Shown piece after piece: positions 9,263 to 17,410 of a stretch of 18,636 nucleotides of DNA. Source of the DNA: a virus (Duplodnaviria; Heunggongvirae; Uroviricota; Caudoviricetes); IMG/VR virus record IMGVR_UViG_2690316267_000010; one strand, written 5' to 3'. How positions within the stretch are numbered: the first letter of the stretch is position 1; each line of letters starts with the position of its first letter. Below the pieces are notes generated by a model, which was given only the letters and a program-made list of their open reading frames with translations, searched no databases and was not told the origin of the DNA. Made by a program: the position numbers and the translations under genes.

Positions 9263-9483
9263 GCCACACCTCCCAGACGCTTAAACATTTTTCCGGAGCA
9301 AAAGGCTATAAGCGGCATACTGACGCGGTAATTACGGCCCAGCGGTTCACAAACCACCTTCTGACATTCACGGTCAACCAGGCTAACACGTAGAACATGC
9401 CCAGCAGGCGTGGTGTACCACTGACCCGGACGAGGACAACGGAAAGTATGATTGGTAAACCGTTTGAAAATATTCCGGATCAT
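9259..9483 (-). CDS. Hypothetical protein (74 aa)
   Basis: ATG overlapping the stop of the upstream Rha-domain gene (ATGA); sits inside a tightly coupled operon. Confidence 0.45.
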   Translation of the reverse strand: MIRNIFKRFTNHTFRCPRPGQWYTTPAGHVLRVSLVDRECQKVVCEPLGRNYRVSMPLIAFCSGKMFKRLGGVA

Positions 9484-10640
9484 TTGCGCCCCCTTACCTC
9501 TGAAGGGTTCAGCGACAAATTTATGAGACTGGCCAGCGCCGAAGCATCATTAATATAGTCATATAAGCTAACAGCCAGCGGAGATTCGGCTTTTGCCAAC
9601 ATAGGATAAAGCTGCTGCAGCCAGACCTGATGAATTGATGAAATGTAGGAACAGAGAACGCTGGCGTTATGTGCAACGTCGCTCGGTACAGCGGGCTTTG
9701 AAAGCTGTTTCTCCATCTGGTTAAAGGCATTTATGTATGCCTCTTTGAACCGGGCAGCACGTTTACCCGTGAAACCCATAGCAAGAAACGCAAAACCGTC
9801 TCGTGTGATTTGATAGCAAGGGAGCTTGCGTGTACCACCGTTCGGTTGATTTACCGAAATCGATGTCTCCGCAAAATTGCGGGCACAAAACTCTGGGGAA
9901 CAATCCAGAGTGCGGATCTTTTTCAGCACATCGTCGTGACGCTTGGAGAAGAAGTTGGCAACAGCCAAAGAAGTGGTAACGGCCTGGCCGTTGTCAATGG
10001 TGATTTCAGGTTGAGTGAGGGCTGGGATCGTAGCCATGATGGCAGCCTCCGTTGACAGTGAAAAACTTCCACCACCGGAAACGCCAATTTCACTGGTGGT
10101 GAACTGGACGGGGTTGGCGTAACCGGCGTCAACGGAGACCGGCGCACCTTTCGGTGCCCCCGCCCAGCCCACCATAATCTGGATGTGAGCAAATGCGGAC
10201 GATAAAAAAGACGCTGGCGCGTCATACATCGCCGTTGACAATTTCAGGACGCCAATCCCGGCACCCGCTTTATAAGGTGCCTGAGCAGTGTAACGTCCCG
10301 GAATTGCAGAATCAATATGCTGGTGGTCCTTCACACTCAACAAAATCACGCCTGAATTTCCACAAAGGACTAAAGCACTCATGCGGGTAGTCTTTGCGAA
10401 GATAGATAACGCGCTGTGTTTCTGGCTCCCAACGAATAACATGGACATAAAGCCCTCTTCCGTCACGAAACCAGCGGTTAAGTTCCTGCACAACTCGCCC
10501 CCCACAGTCAGGTAAAGTTCTCTGTGGTTACTTACAGCCAGGTGATTTGGTAATCTGCATTCATGCCGTAACAACAGGTGTTCAGCGACGCTGACCACCA
10601 GCTGTTGCGACAAACGGTTATTTGCCGTTAAACTATTCAT
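9480..10640 (-). CDS. Rha-family phage regulatory domain protein with a long unrecognised N-terminal region
   Basis: 386-codon stop-free frame; ATG overlaps the YdaT-like stop (ATGA). Residues ~220-320 (VTTSLAVANFFSKRHDDVLKKIRTLD...CYQITRDGFAFLAMGFTGKRAARFKEAYINAFNQME) match the Rha domain; the first ~215 aa were not recognised. Confidence 0.55.
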   Translation of the reverse strand: MNSLTANNRLSQQLVVSVAEHLLLRHECRLPNHLAVSNHRELYLTVGGELCRNLTAGFVTEEGFMSMLFVGSQKHSALSIFAKTTRMSALVLCGNSGVILLSVKDHQHIDSAIPGRYTAQAPYKAGAGIGVLKLSTAMYDAPASFLSSAFAHIQIMVGWAGAPKGAPVSVDAGYANPVQFTTSEIGVSGGGSFSLSTEAAIMATIPALTQPEITIDNGQAVTTSLAVANFFSKRHDDVLKKIRTLDCSPEFCARNFAETSISVNQPNGGTRKLPCYQITRDGFAFLAMGFTGKRAARFKEAYINAFNQMEKQLSKPAVPSDVAHNASVLCSYISSIHQVWLQQLYPMLAKAESPLAVSLYDYINDASALASLINLSLNPSEVRGRK

Positions 10641-11194
10641 GCGTTAGTTTCTCCACAACCAGAAGCAATCGACGCCACGACGCCCGGAGCTGCACACTCG
10701 CGGGCGTTACTATTTTCTGGAGCGCAGAAGATTTTGTAGACCAGTGCTGCATGCTCCTGGAGCTTCGAAATTGAAAGATACAGTTCGTCGTTAATTGCTG
10801 TCTTCTCATGCGGTTCCACTACACCGTCTTCGATTGCTGAACGAATCTGTTTTGAATAACTGCCGATCTGTTCAATGACTTCCAGTAAACGCTGGTTAAT
10901 ATCGGCATTGTCCACATCCTCGACGTCAGGAAGAGACACAAAGACGCCATTTGCAGACTGCGCCACAGCGTCAGCAATGAAGTGAGTGCCACCAGCACGT
11001 TGTAAAATCATTGCCCATCCCAGCGGGAAAATCTGATCGCCATCGGCACGAAGGCGGTTAAATAATGCGTTCTCTGTTACATCCAGCCACTCAGCAGCTT
11101 CAGCGTAACCCTCCGGCAACGCCGCGATAGTTTTTCTGACAGCTTTCACGTACCACTCAGGCTGTTTTTCCACTTTCCAGTGATGATTACCCAC
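10637..11194 (-). CDS. cII-position regulator, putatively YdaT-like
   Basis: GTG start with AGGAGG RBS 6-7 nt upstream; 185 aa; second gene after cro, the position occupied by ydaT in Rac/CP-933P-type prophages. Family call is from memory. Confidence 0.45.
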   Translation of the reverse strand: MGNHHWKVEKQPEWYVKAVRKTIAALPEGYAEAAEWLDVTENALFNRLRADGDQIFPLGWAMILQRAGGTHFIADAVAQSANGVFVSLPDVEDVDNADINQRLLEVIEQIGSYSKQIRSAIEDGVVEPHEKTAINDELYLSISKLQEHAALVYKIFCAPENSNARECAAPGVVASIASGCGETNA

Positions 11195-11447
11195 GGCTTA
11201 CCTCCTGTTCCTGTGGTTTAAACCCATTCTGGTTTTGGCTAGATTGAAAACGTGCCGGATAAAGAATCTGCATTTCGCTGATTTCACCCTTAAAAAAATT
11301 GGCCAGACGTTCTGCAAGATCGATAGATGGAATTTGTTCCAGTCTTTCAATACGACTCAGCGTCGCTGGATTGACCTGAACGCCAGCAGCAACATGCTGC
11401 AAAGTAAATCCGTGCGCCTTACGCACATTCCGTAATGGTGATTGCAT
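11187..11447 (-). CDS. Cro-like HTH (XRE-family) repressor
   Basis: 86 aa, GGAGG RBS, HTH segment FTLQHVAAGVQVNPATLSRIER; transcribed divergently from the CI-like repressor. Confidence 0.7.
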   Translation of the reverse strand: MQSPLRNVRKAHGFTLQHVAAGVQVNPATLSRIERLEQIPSIDLAERLANFFKGEISEMQILYPARFQSSQNQNGFKPQEQEVSRG

Positions 11448-11544
11448 ATGACCTCCACATATTGCGTGATGAGCATATTATTTCACGCAAATATTTTGCG
11501 CAAGTTGATTTGCTTAACGCGCAATAAAGAAATGTAATAAACGC
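11448..11544. promoter_or_regulatory. OR-like divergent control region between cro-like and cI-like genes
   Basis: 97-bp AT-rich intergenic region with repeated TTGCG/CGCAA half-sites: TTGCGTGATGAGCAT (11462-11476), TTGCGCAA (11496-11503), TTGCTTAACGCGCAA (11510-11524). Confidence 0.5.
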
Positions 11545-12237
11545 ATGAACATAGGAAACCGAGTCAGACAACTTCGCCAGGCGAAGAACATGAAAATCGC
11601 CGATCTCGCTGAAGCAATAGGAGTGGATGCGGCGAATATCTCACGCCTGGAAACAGGTAAGCAGAAACAATTCACTGAACAAGCCCTGAGTAATATTGCC
11701 AGGAGCTTAGGTGTTGATATTGCTGATCTCTTTACCTCAGACGTCAAAAGTAATACTGTATGTAAAAACAGTATTAGTGAGGATGTTGCGCAGGTGAAGG
11801 ATGTATTCCGTATTGAAATGCTGGATGTCAGTGCCAGTGCGGGAAATGGCCTTATCCAGGGCGGTGATGTCATTGATGTGATTCATGCCATTGAATACAG
11901 AACTGATAATGCTGTATCGATGTTTGGCGGACGGCCAGCCAATCACATTAAAGTTATCAACGTTCGTGGGGACAGTATGTGTCCAACCATTGAGCCAGGA
12001 GATCTCATCTTCGTTGATGTCAGTATCAATCAGTTTGATGGAGATGGTATCTATGTATTTGGTTTTGATGATAAAATTTATGTCAAACGACTGCAAATGA
12101 TACCTGACAAACTACTGGTGATTTCTGATAACCAGATTTACCGTGAATGGGGAATTACCAGCGAAAATGAACACCGGTTTATGGTCTTTGGAAAGGTCTT
12201 AATCAGCCAGTCACAAACCCTTAAGCGACACAATTAA
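11545..12237 (+). CDS. CI-type prophage repressor (N-terminal HTH + C-terminal LexA/S24 peptidase-like domain)
   Basis: 230 aa; N-terminal XRE HTH (KIADLAEAIGVDAANISRLETGK); C-terminal S24-like region with GDSM (Ser) and downstream KR (FVDVS...YVKRL). Confidence 0.85.
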   Translation: MNIGNRVRQLRQAKNMKIADLAEAIGVDAANISRLETGKQKQFTEQALSNIARSLGVDIADLFTSDVKSNTVCKNSISEDVAQVKDVFRIEMLDVSASAGNGLIQGGDVIDVIHAIEYRTDNAVSMFGGRPANHIKVINVRGDSMCPTIEPGDLIFVDVSINQFDGDGIYVFGFDDKIYVKRLQMIPDKLLVISDNQIYREWGITSENEHRFMVFGKVLISQSQTLKRHN

Positions 12238-12257
12238 CCCTTACCTCCTCATCAATT

Positions 12258-12281
12258 AGCCACCCAAAGGTGGCTTTTCAT
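12258..12281 (+). terminator. Intrinsic terminator after the repressor gene
   Basis: AGCCACC-CAAA-GGTGGCT hairpin followed by TTTT, 21 nt after the stop codon. Confidence 0.6.
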
Positions 12282-12292
12282 TACCCTTTAAA

Positions 12293-12331
12293 TTGCATAT
12301 CTCGCAATAAAAACACTTGCATAATGCGCAA
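12293..12331 (+). promoter_or_regulatory. OL/PL-like operator pair
   Basis: Two 15-bp near-palindromes TTGCATATCTCGCAA (12293-12307) and TTGCATAATGCGCAA (12317-12331), same TTGC-N7-GCAA pattern as the site at 11510-11524; promoter hexamers not confidently placed. Confidence 0.5.
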
Positions 12332-12776
12332 CTTCATTTTATCTTTCTTTCCAGACAAACAAACAAGGTACTAACAAAATTTGGTTGTAACACGGCGTAT
12401 GGCACATGCGTCGTTAGCGGTCTGGGGACGTTAAAGGGGACAATCCACTCCTTGCTCGAGCAAACAAACCAGGTAGCCGGAATGTGCAAGTCAATGATGA
12501 TGCTGATAAGACGCCTAACCAGCGTGGCGGTTCGGTTTGACACCTGGGAAGAGACCAGGGTGCAACGATGAGGGCATTTATGGAACCGCGACAAAGTGTG
12601 GTGCCGTAACTGGCTAAGTGCTCTCAGCGTTGTGGTGAATGCGCAGGCTGATGCGCGAAAGACATTGCAGCTATTGCGGAAAAGAGCTGTTCGGCGGGGC
12701 AATTAAACGCCCGTGAGAGTCTGAAATAACCGCAAGCCGGAGATCAGCACCGGTCACCACAACAGCCACTGCTTTG

Positions 12777-12822
12777 GCGGTACCAGTTTGTACACTTGCT
12801 TCCGGCTGGTACCGCTCTTTTT
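12777..12822 (+). terminator. Intrinsic terminator within the early-left leader
   Basis: Perfect 10-bp inverted repeat GCGGTACCAG ... CTGGTACCGC (loop 19 nt) followed by TCTTTTTT. Confidence 0.5.
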
Positions 12823-12911
12823 ACAAAACAGAGAAGAGCATCACCGGCCGACGGGCTCATAACCCAATCCATCCGGGCGGCTGCCACCGCAGGTGTTCTT
12901 CTCTGTTTTGT
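12823..12911 (+). repeat. Long inverted repeat (17-bp arms, 16/17 matches, ~55-nt spacer); possible structured leader RNA
   Basis: ACAAAACAGAGAAGAGC (12823-12839) pairs with GTTCTTCTCTGTTTTGT (12895-12911); lies between the leader terminator and the first early-left gene. Confidence 0.5.
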
Positions 12912-12959
12912 GGAGAAACCAACCGACCTTGCAGGGTCGATATGATGAGGAGCAGCAAA

Positions 12960-13322
12960 ATGGCTAGCGAACGCAGTACTGATGTGCAGGCATTTATCGG
13001 GGAGCTGGACGGCGGCGTATTTGAAACCAAAATCGGCGCTGTTCTCAGTGAAGTCGCTTCCGGTGTGATGAATACGAAAACCAAAGGTAAGGTCTCGCTC
13101 AACCTGGAAATCGAACCATTTGATGAGAACCGTGTGAAAATCAAACACAAACTCTCATATGTTCGCCCGACTAACCGCGGGAAAATTTCCGAAGAAGACA
13201 CCACCGAAACGCCGATGTATGTCAATCGCGGTGGTCGCCTGACTATTCTGCAGGAAGACCAGGGACAATTACTGACTCTTGCCGGTGAACCTGACGGAAA
13301 ACTCCGCGCAGCAGGTCATTAA
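12960..13322 (+). CDS. Hypothetical protein, 120 aa (same size and position as CPS-53 YfdP)
   Basis: ATG with GAGGAG RBS 8 nt upstream; the longer track ORF (TTG at 12774) is rejected because it begins inside the terminator hairpin. Confidence 0.5.
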   Translation: MASERSTDVQAFIGELDGGVFETKIGAVLSEVASGVMNTKTKGKVSLNLEIEPFDENRVKIKHKLSYVRPTNRGKISEEDTTETPMYVNRGGRLTILQEDQGQLLTLAGEPDGKLRAAGH

Positions 13323-16421: not shown

Positions 16422-16841
16422 TTACTCATCATCAATAGATGATACGCAATATTTATTTTTAAATTTAAGGTTCTTTGGCGTAACTTCATCAGAGATATCA
16501 AAACCGTCCAGAATTCTATTGAATGTAGCTTCTGGCATATCATCATGAACAGAAATCTCACCCGATCGCTGCTTTCTAACCATGTTATCCACTCGCCAAA
16601 TTATAGCTTCAGCGTAAACAACATAACTTGGATGCTTGATAAAGCGATGATCACCAGAATTCAAGACGCAAGACGGATCGTGGGGGACACCATCCTTGAT
16701 ACTAGAAATATTAACAACTAAAACACAATAACAATCGTTAACGGGGTAATAAACAGGATCATTACAAATCACATGAAGATGATTGCATGGTCCAGTTGGG
16801 GCAAGCACAGTTCCTTTCCTGTATGGCTGATAATCCGTCAT
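16422..16841 (-). CDS. Unrecognised 139-aa protein, candidate toxin/effector partner of the Panacea-domain protein
   Basis: ATG overlaps the stop of the upstream DUF4065 gene (ATGA); AT-rich; Cys/His-rich N-terminus (GPCNHLHVICNDPVYYPVNDCYC); no family recognised. Confidence 0.55.
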   Translation of the reverse strand: MTDYQPYRKGTVLAPTGPCNHLHVICNDPVYYPVNDCYCVLVVNISSIKDGVPHDPSCVLNSGDHRFIKHPSYVVYAEAIIWRVDNMVRKQRSGEISVHDDMPEATFNRILDGFDISDEVTPKNLKFKNKYCVSSIDDE

Positions 16842-17410
16842 GATAATTGCAAAGAAAATTCCTTAAGTTTCTGAGATTCTTCCATTTTGCCAATTATGCG
16901 ATTAGCCTCATCCTCGCTTTTACCCTCACTGATCAGCATTTCTTTCAGGTCTATAGGCTTACGAGAATTGCCAGGATCGTGCCACTCTGGACAAACGCTT
17001 TCTAAATGCGTCATATTTGCGAGATCAAATCGGTTCATATGCCCATACCGAGAATAGATTTCATCTAAAATCCGGATATCTGCACGACTCAATTCATCAA
17101 AGACCTCGTCTGCATCCATTTCCCTCGGATCTGAACGCAACGATACATTATGCCCGTTCGTCTCTATCAAGTTGTACCAGTAGTCACCAATGCCTTCAGC
17201 CTTACCGCGAATCAAGTTCAGCGTATTCGACATGACTGGTCCAAATTTCATAGAGTAAAGGCTATCTTCGCCGATCATCCTGCCATGCTTCAAAATCGAC
17301 TGGCGGTTAGACAGATAGAGCAGCTTCATCAATTTCAGATATGCCATGCGCCCACCTCTCTTAAGAAGTAGGTATGCAGCCATTTGAGCTACTTTTTCTT
17401 CGCAAAACAT
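16838..17410 (-). CDS. Panacea-domain (DUF4065, GepA/SocA-like) protein, candidate antitoxin
   Basis: 190 aa, GAGG RBS; N-terminal region AYLLLKRGGRMAYLKLMKLLYLSNRQSILKHGRMIGEDSLYSMKFGPVMSNTLNLIRG resembles DUF4065/Panacea proteins as recalled. Confidence 0.6.
   Translation of the reverse strand: MFCEEKVAQMAAYLLLKRGGRMAYLKLMKLLYLSNRQSILKHGRMIGEDSLYSMKFGPVMSNTLNLIRGKAEGIGDYWYNLIETNGHNVSLRSDPREMDADEVFDELSRADIRILDEIYSRYGHMNRFDLANMTHLESVCPEWHDPGNSRKPIDLKEMLISEGKSEDEANRIIGKMEESQKLKEFSLQLS

Follow-up and report, generated by a model that had tools for sequence, protein, structure and literature searches.

The stretch of DNA considered here (18,636 nucleotides, IMG/VR record IMGVR_UViG_2690316267_000010, a virus of the Caudoviricetes; hereafter the window) belongs to a lambdoid prophage of the E. 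coli type. Our subject is a set of 15-bp inverted repeats of the general form TTGC-N7-GCAA, which lie on both sides of its cI-type repressor gene and are candidate operators of its immunity system. The repressor gene (11545-12237, plus strand) and a cro-like gene (11187-11447, minus strand) are divergent, with 97 bp in between, which we treat as the right operator region (OR). The cro-like gene encodes an 86-amino-acid protein with an XRE-type helix-turn-helix (HTH) domain (Pfam HTH_3, 5.8e-10), and its counterparts in SfII and PhiR63_1 carry the annotation Cro; just downstream of it, Pfam identifies a cII-like gene of the CP76/YmfL family. Directly 3' of the cI stop codon at 12237 lies an intrinsic terminator (12258-12275, plus strand), made of the hairpin AGCCACC/GGTGGCT and a T-run, which is retained with compensating stem changes in nine lineages (alignment A2). 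Together, cro, OR, cI, the terminator and the left operator region with its promoter (OL/PL) form an immunity cassette of 1150 bp (11223-12372), the limits of which are set by blastn homology to cdtI and e14.

The repressor (230 amino acids) combines an N-terminal HTH of the XRE/434 type, matched by HTH_3, HTH_26 and HTH_31 and predicted to be a five-helix XRE domain, with a C-terminal S24 peptidase (Peptidase_S24, 6.4e-19). At the positions of LexA-like self-cleavage it has Ala99-Gly100, Ser144 (in GDSM) and Lys181, and from these residue positions it is predicted to be of the LexA-like self-cleaving type; the spacing of 37 between Ser144 and Lys181 is the same as in LexA. The protein bears generic names only in databases. 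Its sequence hits in the PDB are UmuD, a 434-type repressor (dh434, 1sq8), ClgR and a PbsX-family regulator; the closest solved structures are generic HTH and UmuD domains only.

Four 15-bp sites around cI

The first-pass annotation had pointed to two near-identical 15-bp sites beyond the repressor terminator. Both are present as exact matches to the motif: the distal OL site, TTGCATATCTCGCAA, at 12293-12307 (19.0 bits with the weight matrix described below), the position of which is conserved, and the proximal one, TTGCATAATGCGCAA, at 12317-12331 (20.9 bits, the top score in the window). They have 12 of 15 bases in common, start 24 bp apart and lie downstream of the hairpin and T-run. The third site placed between cro and cI, TTGCTTAACGCGCAA at 11510-11524 (site C, OR3-like; 17.2 bits), was likewise recovered as an exact match. 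As for the TTGCG/CGCAA half-sites listed for the same interval, they do exist, at 11462, 11486 and 11496/11499, but the one at 11462 is not a loose half-site: it belongs to a full, imperfect 15-bp site, TTGCGTGATGAGCAT at 11462-11476 (site A, OR1-like), which has one mismatch to TTGC-N6-CGCAA, scores 15.7 bits and is conserved in every relative. All four sites fall within the cro-cI cassette.

A motif search over the whole window returned four exact matches to TTGC-N7-GCAA, against 0.77 expected, and only one of 200 shuffled windows reached four. Three of these matches are found around cI; the fourth (2527-2541) lies within a tRNA gene and is attributed to chance. Given the motif density of the whole window, the Poisson probability of finding three matches in the approximately 210 bp of intergenic DNA that flank cI is about 1e-7. 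The three 15-mers also emerged from an unbiased repeat search, as its first direct-repeat family (D1).

We further built a symmetrised position weight matrix (PWM) from 34 sites of relatives, leaving out those with cores identical to the window sites. It places the four window sites at ranks 1 to 4, and the maxima in shuffled windows have a median of 9.4 bits and a 95th percentile of 15.6 bits. This ranking is partly circular, because the relatives' sites were chosen by regular expression at pre-specified positions. Position 8, the centre of the dyad, is A or T in 66 of the 68 symmetrised sites. One further match, TTGCGCTAATCGCAT at 2106-2120 (15.5 bits), lies some 9 kb away from the cassette, within a tciA/TerB-like coding sequence; since it stands at the 95th percentile of the shuffle maxima, it is probably due to chance.

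Conservation of the sites and exchange of the cassette

The sites were compared in 15 loci with repressors 66-100% identical to that of the window, from Escherichia, Shigella, Salmonella, Klebsiella, Citrobacter, Pseudescherichia, Buttiauxella and Trabulsiella. In all 15, TTGC-N7-GCA[AT] starts 83 (or 84) and 35 (or 36) nt before the cI ATG. Beyond the cI stop codon, ten loci have two sites that fit the regular expression perfectly, about 54 and 77 nt past the stop, and four have one such site, three of these with a near-match at the distal place; the sites are absent from the remaining locus, possibly a remnant. The alignments of OR (A1, 11 lineages) and of the region past cI (A2) show little or no change in the half-sites TTGCR/YGCAW, whereas the central 5 bp and the stretches from one site to the next differ among lineages. 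The span within the 15-bp unit is constant and the distance between the two downstream units ranges from 22 to 24 bp, which singles out the 15-mer as the recognised unit.

In a reverse test, scanning IMG/VR with the pattern TTGCGCAAGT-N4-TTGC-N7-GCAA, which covers 11496-11524 only, we obtained 120 contigs, in 111 of which a cI homologue starts 49-50 nt after the start of the pattern (109 of them encoding 230-231 amino acids). These 111 comprise every locus with the OR pattern and a complete downstream open reading frame (ORF), and all of them encode a homologue of the window repressor, with 61 distinct proteins 55-100% identical to it. All these repressors share the recognition helix xDxANISRLETGKQ, with conservative changes only. 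Site A, which is outside the search pattern, fits in all 94 distinct OR/OL sequence pairs, in 23 sequence variants, and at least one site past cI is present in 93 of the 94 (exactly two, 22, 23 or 24 bp apart, in 79). The motif is thus conserved in prophages with the same repressor, both in the 15 loci and in the 94 viral-contig loci. At the level of sequence comparison, purifying selection on the half-sites against a changing background is shown.

The window was also compared with cdtI and e14. Blastn homology between the window and these two elements ends at 11222 and resumes at 12373, leaving 11223-12372 non-homologous between flanks that are otherwise 88-94% identical. The left flank, with the cII/ymfL region, is common to both (88-92% identical); the right flank, which from 12373 corresponds to a conserved PL leader, is 94% identical in cdtI, and only a 176-nt piece of it is found in e14. 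The cdtI repressor is 99% identical to e14 YmfK. The e14/cdtI cassette (YmfK-YmfT) occupies the same genomic slot as that of the window, but the N-terminal DNA-binding part of its repressor is unrelated to that of the window repressor; no TTGC-N7-GCA[AT] is found in the cdtI and e14 cassettes, which hold dyads of their own at the equivalent places (for example ATGTACC...GATACAT). Equating the window repressor with e14 YmfK, as the 'YmfL' annotation would lead one to expect, is wrong, YmfK being of the cdtI type. The e14/cdtI cassette is a natural swap control: the sites lie inside the exchanged block and the motif disappears together with the repressor, so that its association is with cI/cro, rather than with the flanks or the cII-like gene.

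This exchange bears on the possibility that the sites are bound by another phage regulator, either the cII-like CP76/YmfL protein or a protein of the Rha/Ash antirepressor module. Lambda CII binds TTGC-N6-TTGC, and this recognition of TTGC repeats, with a cII-like gene just downstream of cro, lends the idea some appeal. The repeats here are inverted, however, not direct, and the CP76 family is unrelated to lambda CII. Moreover, the cII/YmfL gene retains 88-92% DNA identity in cdtI and e14, yet the equivalent intergenic regions lack the motif; the antirepressor region too is common with cdtI, where the motif is missing. We regard such a regulator as extremely improbable.

The 15-bp dyad TTGCR-N5-YGCAW is, in our judgement with high probability, the operator of the CI-type repressor, and most likely also of the divergent Cro-type protein. 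That the sites form the operator set of a CI-type immunity system, as first proposed from the window alone, finds support in the flanking genes, the co-variation with the repressor, the conservation and the overlap with predicted promoters described below. The accompanying proposal that the motif defines immunity specificity is upheld as well, since sites and repressor travel in one 1150-bp cassette and are swapped out together in cdtI and e14.

Predicted promoters and proposed layout of the switch

Three promoters are assigned from invariant hexamer-defining bases and their spacing, and are accordingly predictions. For the right promoter (PR, minus strand), the putative -10 hexamer is TAATAT (11475-11480; plus-strand columns AT(A/G)TTA), and its columns are invariant or purine-only in the 11 lineages of A1, giving TAAYAT; the A at position 2 and the T at position 6 of the hexamer are kept only on the minus strand. 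The -35 hexamer TTGCGC (11498-11503) lies 17 nt upstream, a spacing retained in the lineages read, and is contained in TTGCGCAAGT (11496-11505), which is invariant in all 11 lineages; the predicted start is near 11468. A competing plus-strand reading, TCCACA-16-TATTAT (11454-11481), was rejected: its -10 has the A at position 2 and the T at position 6 in the window lineage only, unlike the minus-strand TAAYAT, which holds in all lineages. For the repressor maintenance promoter (PRM, plus strand), TTGCTT (11510-11515) is followed after 17 nt by TGTAAT (11533-11538), which ends 6 nt before the cI ATG. TGTAAT is invariant in the 11 lineages and the bases from it to the ATG are variable. There is no Shine-Dalgarno sequence ahead of the cI ATG in the window, and this, with the position of TGTAAT, suggests that the cI maintenance transcript is probably leaderless, as in lambda. 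Finally, the left promoter (PL, plus strand) would consist of TTGCAT (12317-12322) and, 17 nt downstream, TATCTT (12340-12345), the T, A and final T of which (T91, A92 and T96 in A2) are invariant in nine lineages. PL is predicted to drive rightward transcription towards yfdP-yfdQ-yfdR, the RefSeq annotation downstream of it being yfdP, yfdQ, yfdR, a hypothetical gene and a PrtN-family gene.

The sites overlap these predicted promoters. Site A takes in 2 bp at the end of the PR -10 hexamer together with the predicted start of PR, site C spans the predicted PRM -35 and the spacer, and the left half of the proximal OL site is the predicted PL -35. The repeat search also finds that OR as a whole (11460-11526) is an imperfect palindrome, with 32-nt arms 72% complementary around a centre at 11493, so that PR and PRM would be nearly mirror-symmetric around the invariant TTGCGCAA.

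Such overlap raises the question of whether the TTGC blocks are simply the -35 elements of three promoters, the dyads being by-products and the 15-mer not a unit recognised by the repressor. TTG is the core of the sigma-70 -35 element, and a TTGCNN that can be read as a -35 begins sites 11510 and 12317 or adjoins a site (11498-11503), which accounts for three of the four. The fourth, the distal OL site, is conserved although no hexamer stands at promoter distance from it. The right half-sites, (C/T)GCA(A/T), show as much conservation as their left counterparts, and the 15-bp span of the unit does not change. Site A is found downstream of the PR -10 instead of at a -35 position. In addition, cdtI and e14 lose the motif with the repressor, yet keep promoters in the same places. 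We consider this explanation very improbable.

With the dyads taken as operators, the switch may be pictured as follows. Between cro and cI, OR would hold site A on the PR -10 and start, site C on the PRM -35 and possibly a weak site in the middle; just past the cI terminator, OL would hold two sites, the proximal one covering the PL -35. PR and PL would be silent in a lysogen, shut off by repressor dimers bound at site A and at both OL sites. Site C would either limit the repressor's own synthesis or be the target through which Cro shuts off PRM. DNA damage would lift repression and induce the prophage through self-cleavage of the repressor at Ala99-Gly100, stimulated by RecA. Every feature of a lambdoid switch that sequence can address is found at the locus (divergent genes, a repressor with HTH and S24 domains, dyads overlapping predicted promoters, a second cluster, and co-variation). 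What the analysis shows is the sites with their statistics, the constancy of their positions, the way they co-vary with the repressor and the domains of the proteins; binding itself, the preference of each protein for given sites, the promoter assignments, cooperativity and autoregulation are what we infer.

Several observations weigh against the operator interpretation. By PWM, the top-scoring site of OR sits over PRM and not PR, and if the score tracks affinity, the order of the OR sites is opposite to the lambda affinity order. PR, PRM and PL all fall below the threshold of a sigma-70 consensus scan, because their -35 hexamers match only TTG and the PRM -10 lacks the A at position 2. The relatives are homologous, so that the locus counts do not represent independent events. 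OR contains only two strong sites (11462 and 11510), and the right half of the candidate middle site is degenerate, its last base pair being also the first of site C. Lastly, no alignment is obtained by BLASTP between the CI N-terminal domain and Cro.

This last result, taken with the fact that CI and Cro are inseparable in the cassette and so are not told apart by the comparative data, favours the idea that only the Cro-type protein, or only CI, uses the sites and that the other has a different target. When the two domains are anchored on the Pfam HTH_3 coordinates, however, helix 3 reads AANISRLE in CI and PATLSRIE in Cro, with A-x-(I/L)-S-R-(L/I)-E in common, and the 11-lineage alignment of OR has no second conserved dyad besides the promoter hexamers. 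To our knowledge, CI and Cro share operators in all characterised lambdoid switches (lambda, 434 and P22). Given the BLASTP result, binding of shared sites rests on the similarity of helix 3 and on analogy; by that analogy, use of the same operators by Cro is most likely, and a system in which a single protein uses them appears improbable.

The middle of OR deserves separate attention. The candidate weak middle operator (OR2-like), TTGCGCAAGTTGATT at 11496-11510, has a perfect left half, and its left ten bases are invariant in A1; its centre lies 42 nt upstream of the cI ATG, that is, of the predicted PRM start. Lambda CI activates PRM from a position centred at -42. Citrobacter amalonaticus has a full site, TTGCGCAAGTCGCAT, at the same position, and the right-half variants seen among the 94 viral loci are TGATT, TGCTT, CGCTT and TAATT, none of which fits the regular expression. 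The invariance of TTGCGCAAGT is explained in part by the PR -35. We would give 11496-11510 somewhat less than an even chance of being a weak OR2. Alternatively, and this we think rather unlikely, OR could be a two-site switch with an invariant fused pair of half-sites, TTGCGCAA (11496-11503), and not a copy of the three-site lambda arrangement. The pair would continue into a degenerate 15-mer that has one base pair in common with site C. If so, the -42 activating position and the PRM-repressing site would be either mutually exclusive or obligatorily coupled, and the logic of autoregulation would differ from that of lambda, 434 and P22.

Two other units in this interval were rejected. The 'inside-out' CGCAA-N5-TTGCG (11486-11500), midway between sites A and C, keeps its CGCAA only in the closest lineage (cI 91% identical or more), and the equivalent spacing in OL is anywhere between 7 and 9. 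The other unit, a 15-mer that ends at 11503, lacks conservation in its left half. Outside the interval, codons 8-12 of cro (11412-11426, GTGCGCCTTACGCAC) form a dyad in operator register, 50 bp from site A. At this place (-133), within the coding sequence of cro, many sister lineages have one more full operator match: it occurs in 31 of 94 related loci (for example TTGCGATTTTCGCAA), which retain the codons TTG (Leu) and TCG (Ser), the window lineage having lost the outer bases. In sister lineages, this may be a fourth, intragenic operator.

Downstream of the predicted PL, about 600 nt (12346-12960, plus strand) precede yfdP with no convincing ORF and with no annotation in RefSeq, SfII or cdtI. 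This leader is 94% identical in the heteroimmune cdtI and folds better than shuffled sequences (z = -3.7, 20 shuffles). Within it, 176 nt (12774-12949) are also conserved in e14 (ymfH region), SfII and Eeyore, and hold a GC-rich hairpin followed by CTCTTTTT (approximately 12776-12822) and a long hairpin with 15-bp arms, ACAAAACAGAGAAGA/TCTTCTCTGTTTTGT. Part of this leader could be a terminator or an antitermination element, the phage group being one described as lacking N. Rfam gave no match in OR or OL, and none in the PL leader even at E values up to 1.

Elsewhere, Rfam identifies isrK (10204-10280) and C4 antisense RNA (10092-10179) on the minus strand (10092-10280), in the 5' part of a 386-amino-acid ORF (9480-10640) that RefSeq names 'Rha family phage regulatory protein' and Pfam assigns to Ash and Rha. 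The region, downstream of cro-cII, resembles a c4/antirepressor module of the P1 immI type, and the position of the two RNAs inside the long ORF suggests that the latter may be over-called at its 5' end. A cluster at 1467-2742, with AgvB (an anti-GcvB small RNA, 1467-1528, plus strand), STnc100 (1529-1722, minus strand) and three tRNA genes (2496-2742, minus strand), resembles those of lambdoid prophages of the enterohaemorrhagic E. coli type. By the end of the prophage, the RefSeq annotation of an identical prophage assigns a Panacea-domain protein to 16838-17410 (minus strand), adjoined with a 4-nt overlap by an ORF of 139 amino acids (16422-16841, minus strand); 16422-17410 may encode a PanA-type toxin-antitoxin pair.

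Distribution and comparison with known switches

The 1.4-kb region is 96-98.6% identical in mEp460, PhiR63_1, phiSTEC1575-Stx2k, Stx2a_1447, Stx2a_WGPS2 and phage 1720a-02, and 91% identical in the Shigella serotype-converting phage SfII. Among 5426 complete E. coli genomes, 1040 (about 19%) contain at least 80% of it, which places the cassette among the commonest prophage immunity types in E. coli. From the shared sequences, the prophage should be homoimmune with mEp460, SfII and several Shiga toxin (Stx) 2 phages. In the open-access literature we found no paper defining these operators, although an older description in a subscription journal is possible; publications on e14, SfII/SfV, mEp460, the regulation of Stx phages and the motif itself gave no description of them. 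The operators of this common immunity type therefore seem to be undescribed so far. Their consensus could be used to predict homoimmune prophages, to design reporters or inducible systems and to interpret variation in the inducibility of Stx phages.

Among known switches, that of phage 434 is similar in its XRE-type HTH, the designed variant dh434 (1sq8) being among the best PDB hits, and in operators with invariant outer 4-5 bp and a variable A/T-rich centre. The central bases of 434 operators are subject to indirect readout, and by analogy the A/T-rich centre of the window operators may be read indirectly as well. The half-site sequence is different, however, and the similarity of the repressors is at the domain level only (E about 2e-4). 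The 434 operators are 14 bp long (ACAA-N6-TTGT); the window operator has an odd length, so that its dyad passes through a base pair, unlike that of 434.

The closest classically studied homologue is P22 C2: the window repressor has the same domain plan and 43% full-length identity to the C2 of ST160, a P22-like phage. P22 operators are 18-bp dyads of a sequence unrelated to the window motif. At 43% identity and with a different recognition helix, P22 C2 would be heteroimmune with the window repressor. As for OL, Tyler, Mills and Friedman reportedly found in 2004 that the Stx phage 933W has only two sites there; 933W is a lambdoid phage of the Stx type, with a repressor and an operator sequence that differ from those of the window.

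The resemblance to lambda concerns the whole plan: divergent cI and cro with operators in between, a second cluster beyond cI with a promoter pointing in the direction of cI, a repressor that joins an HTH to a self-cleaving domain like that of LexA, a centre-to-centre distance of about 24 bp from one site to its neighbour, a -10 immediately before the cI ATG, implying a leaderless message, and a candidate activating position at -42. The differences lie in the details. The operator is 15 bp long (TTGCR-N5-YGCAW) against 17 bp in lambda; OL has two sites instead of three; OR has two strong sites 48 bp apart and at most a degenerate third one abutting site C; and site A lies on the PR start, not between the -10 and the -35. 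The HTH is of the XRE/434 type and the cII-like gene of the CP76/YmfL family, and a published comparison of the related Shigella phages SfII, SfV and SfIV reports that they have no homologue of N, cII or cIII (PMC3851460). On balance this seems to be an ordinary lambda-style switch, which adds nothing conceptually new to the lambda paradigm, unless its unusual OR layout works differently.

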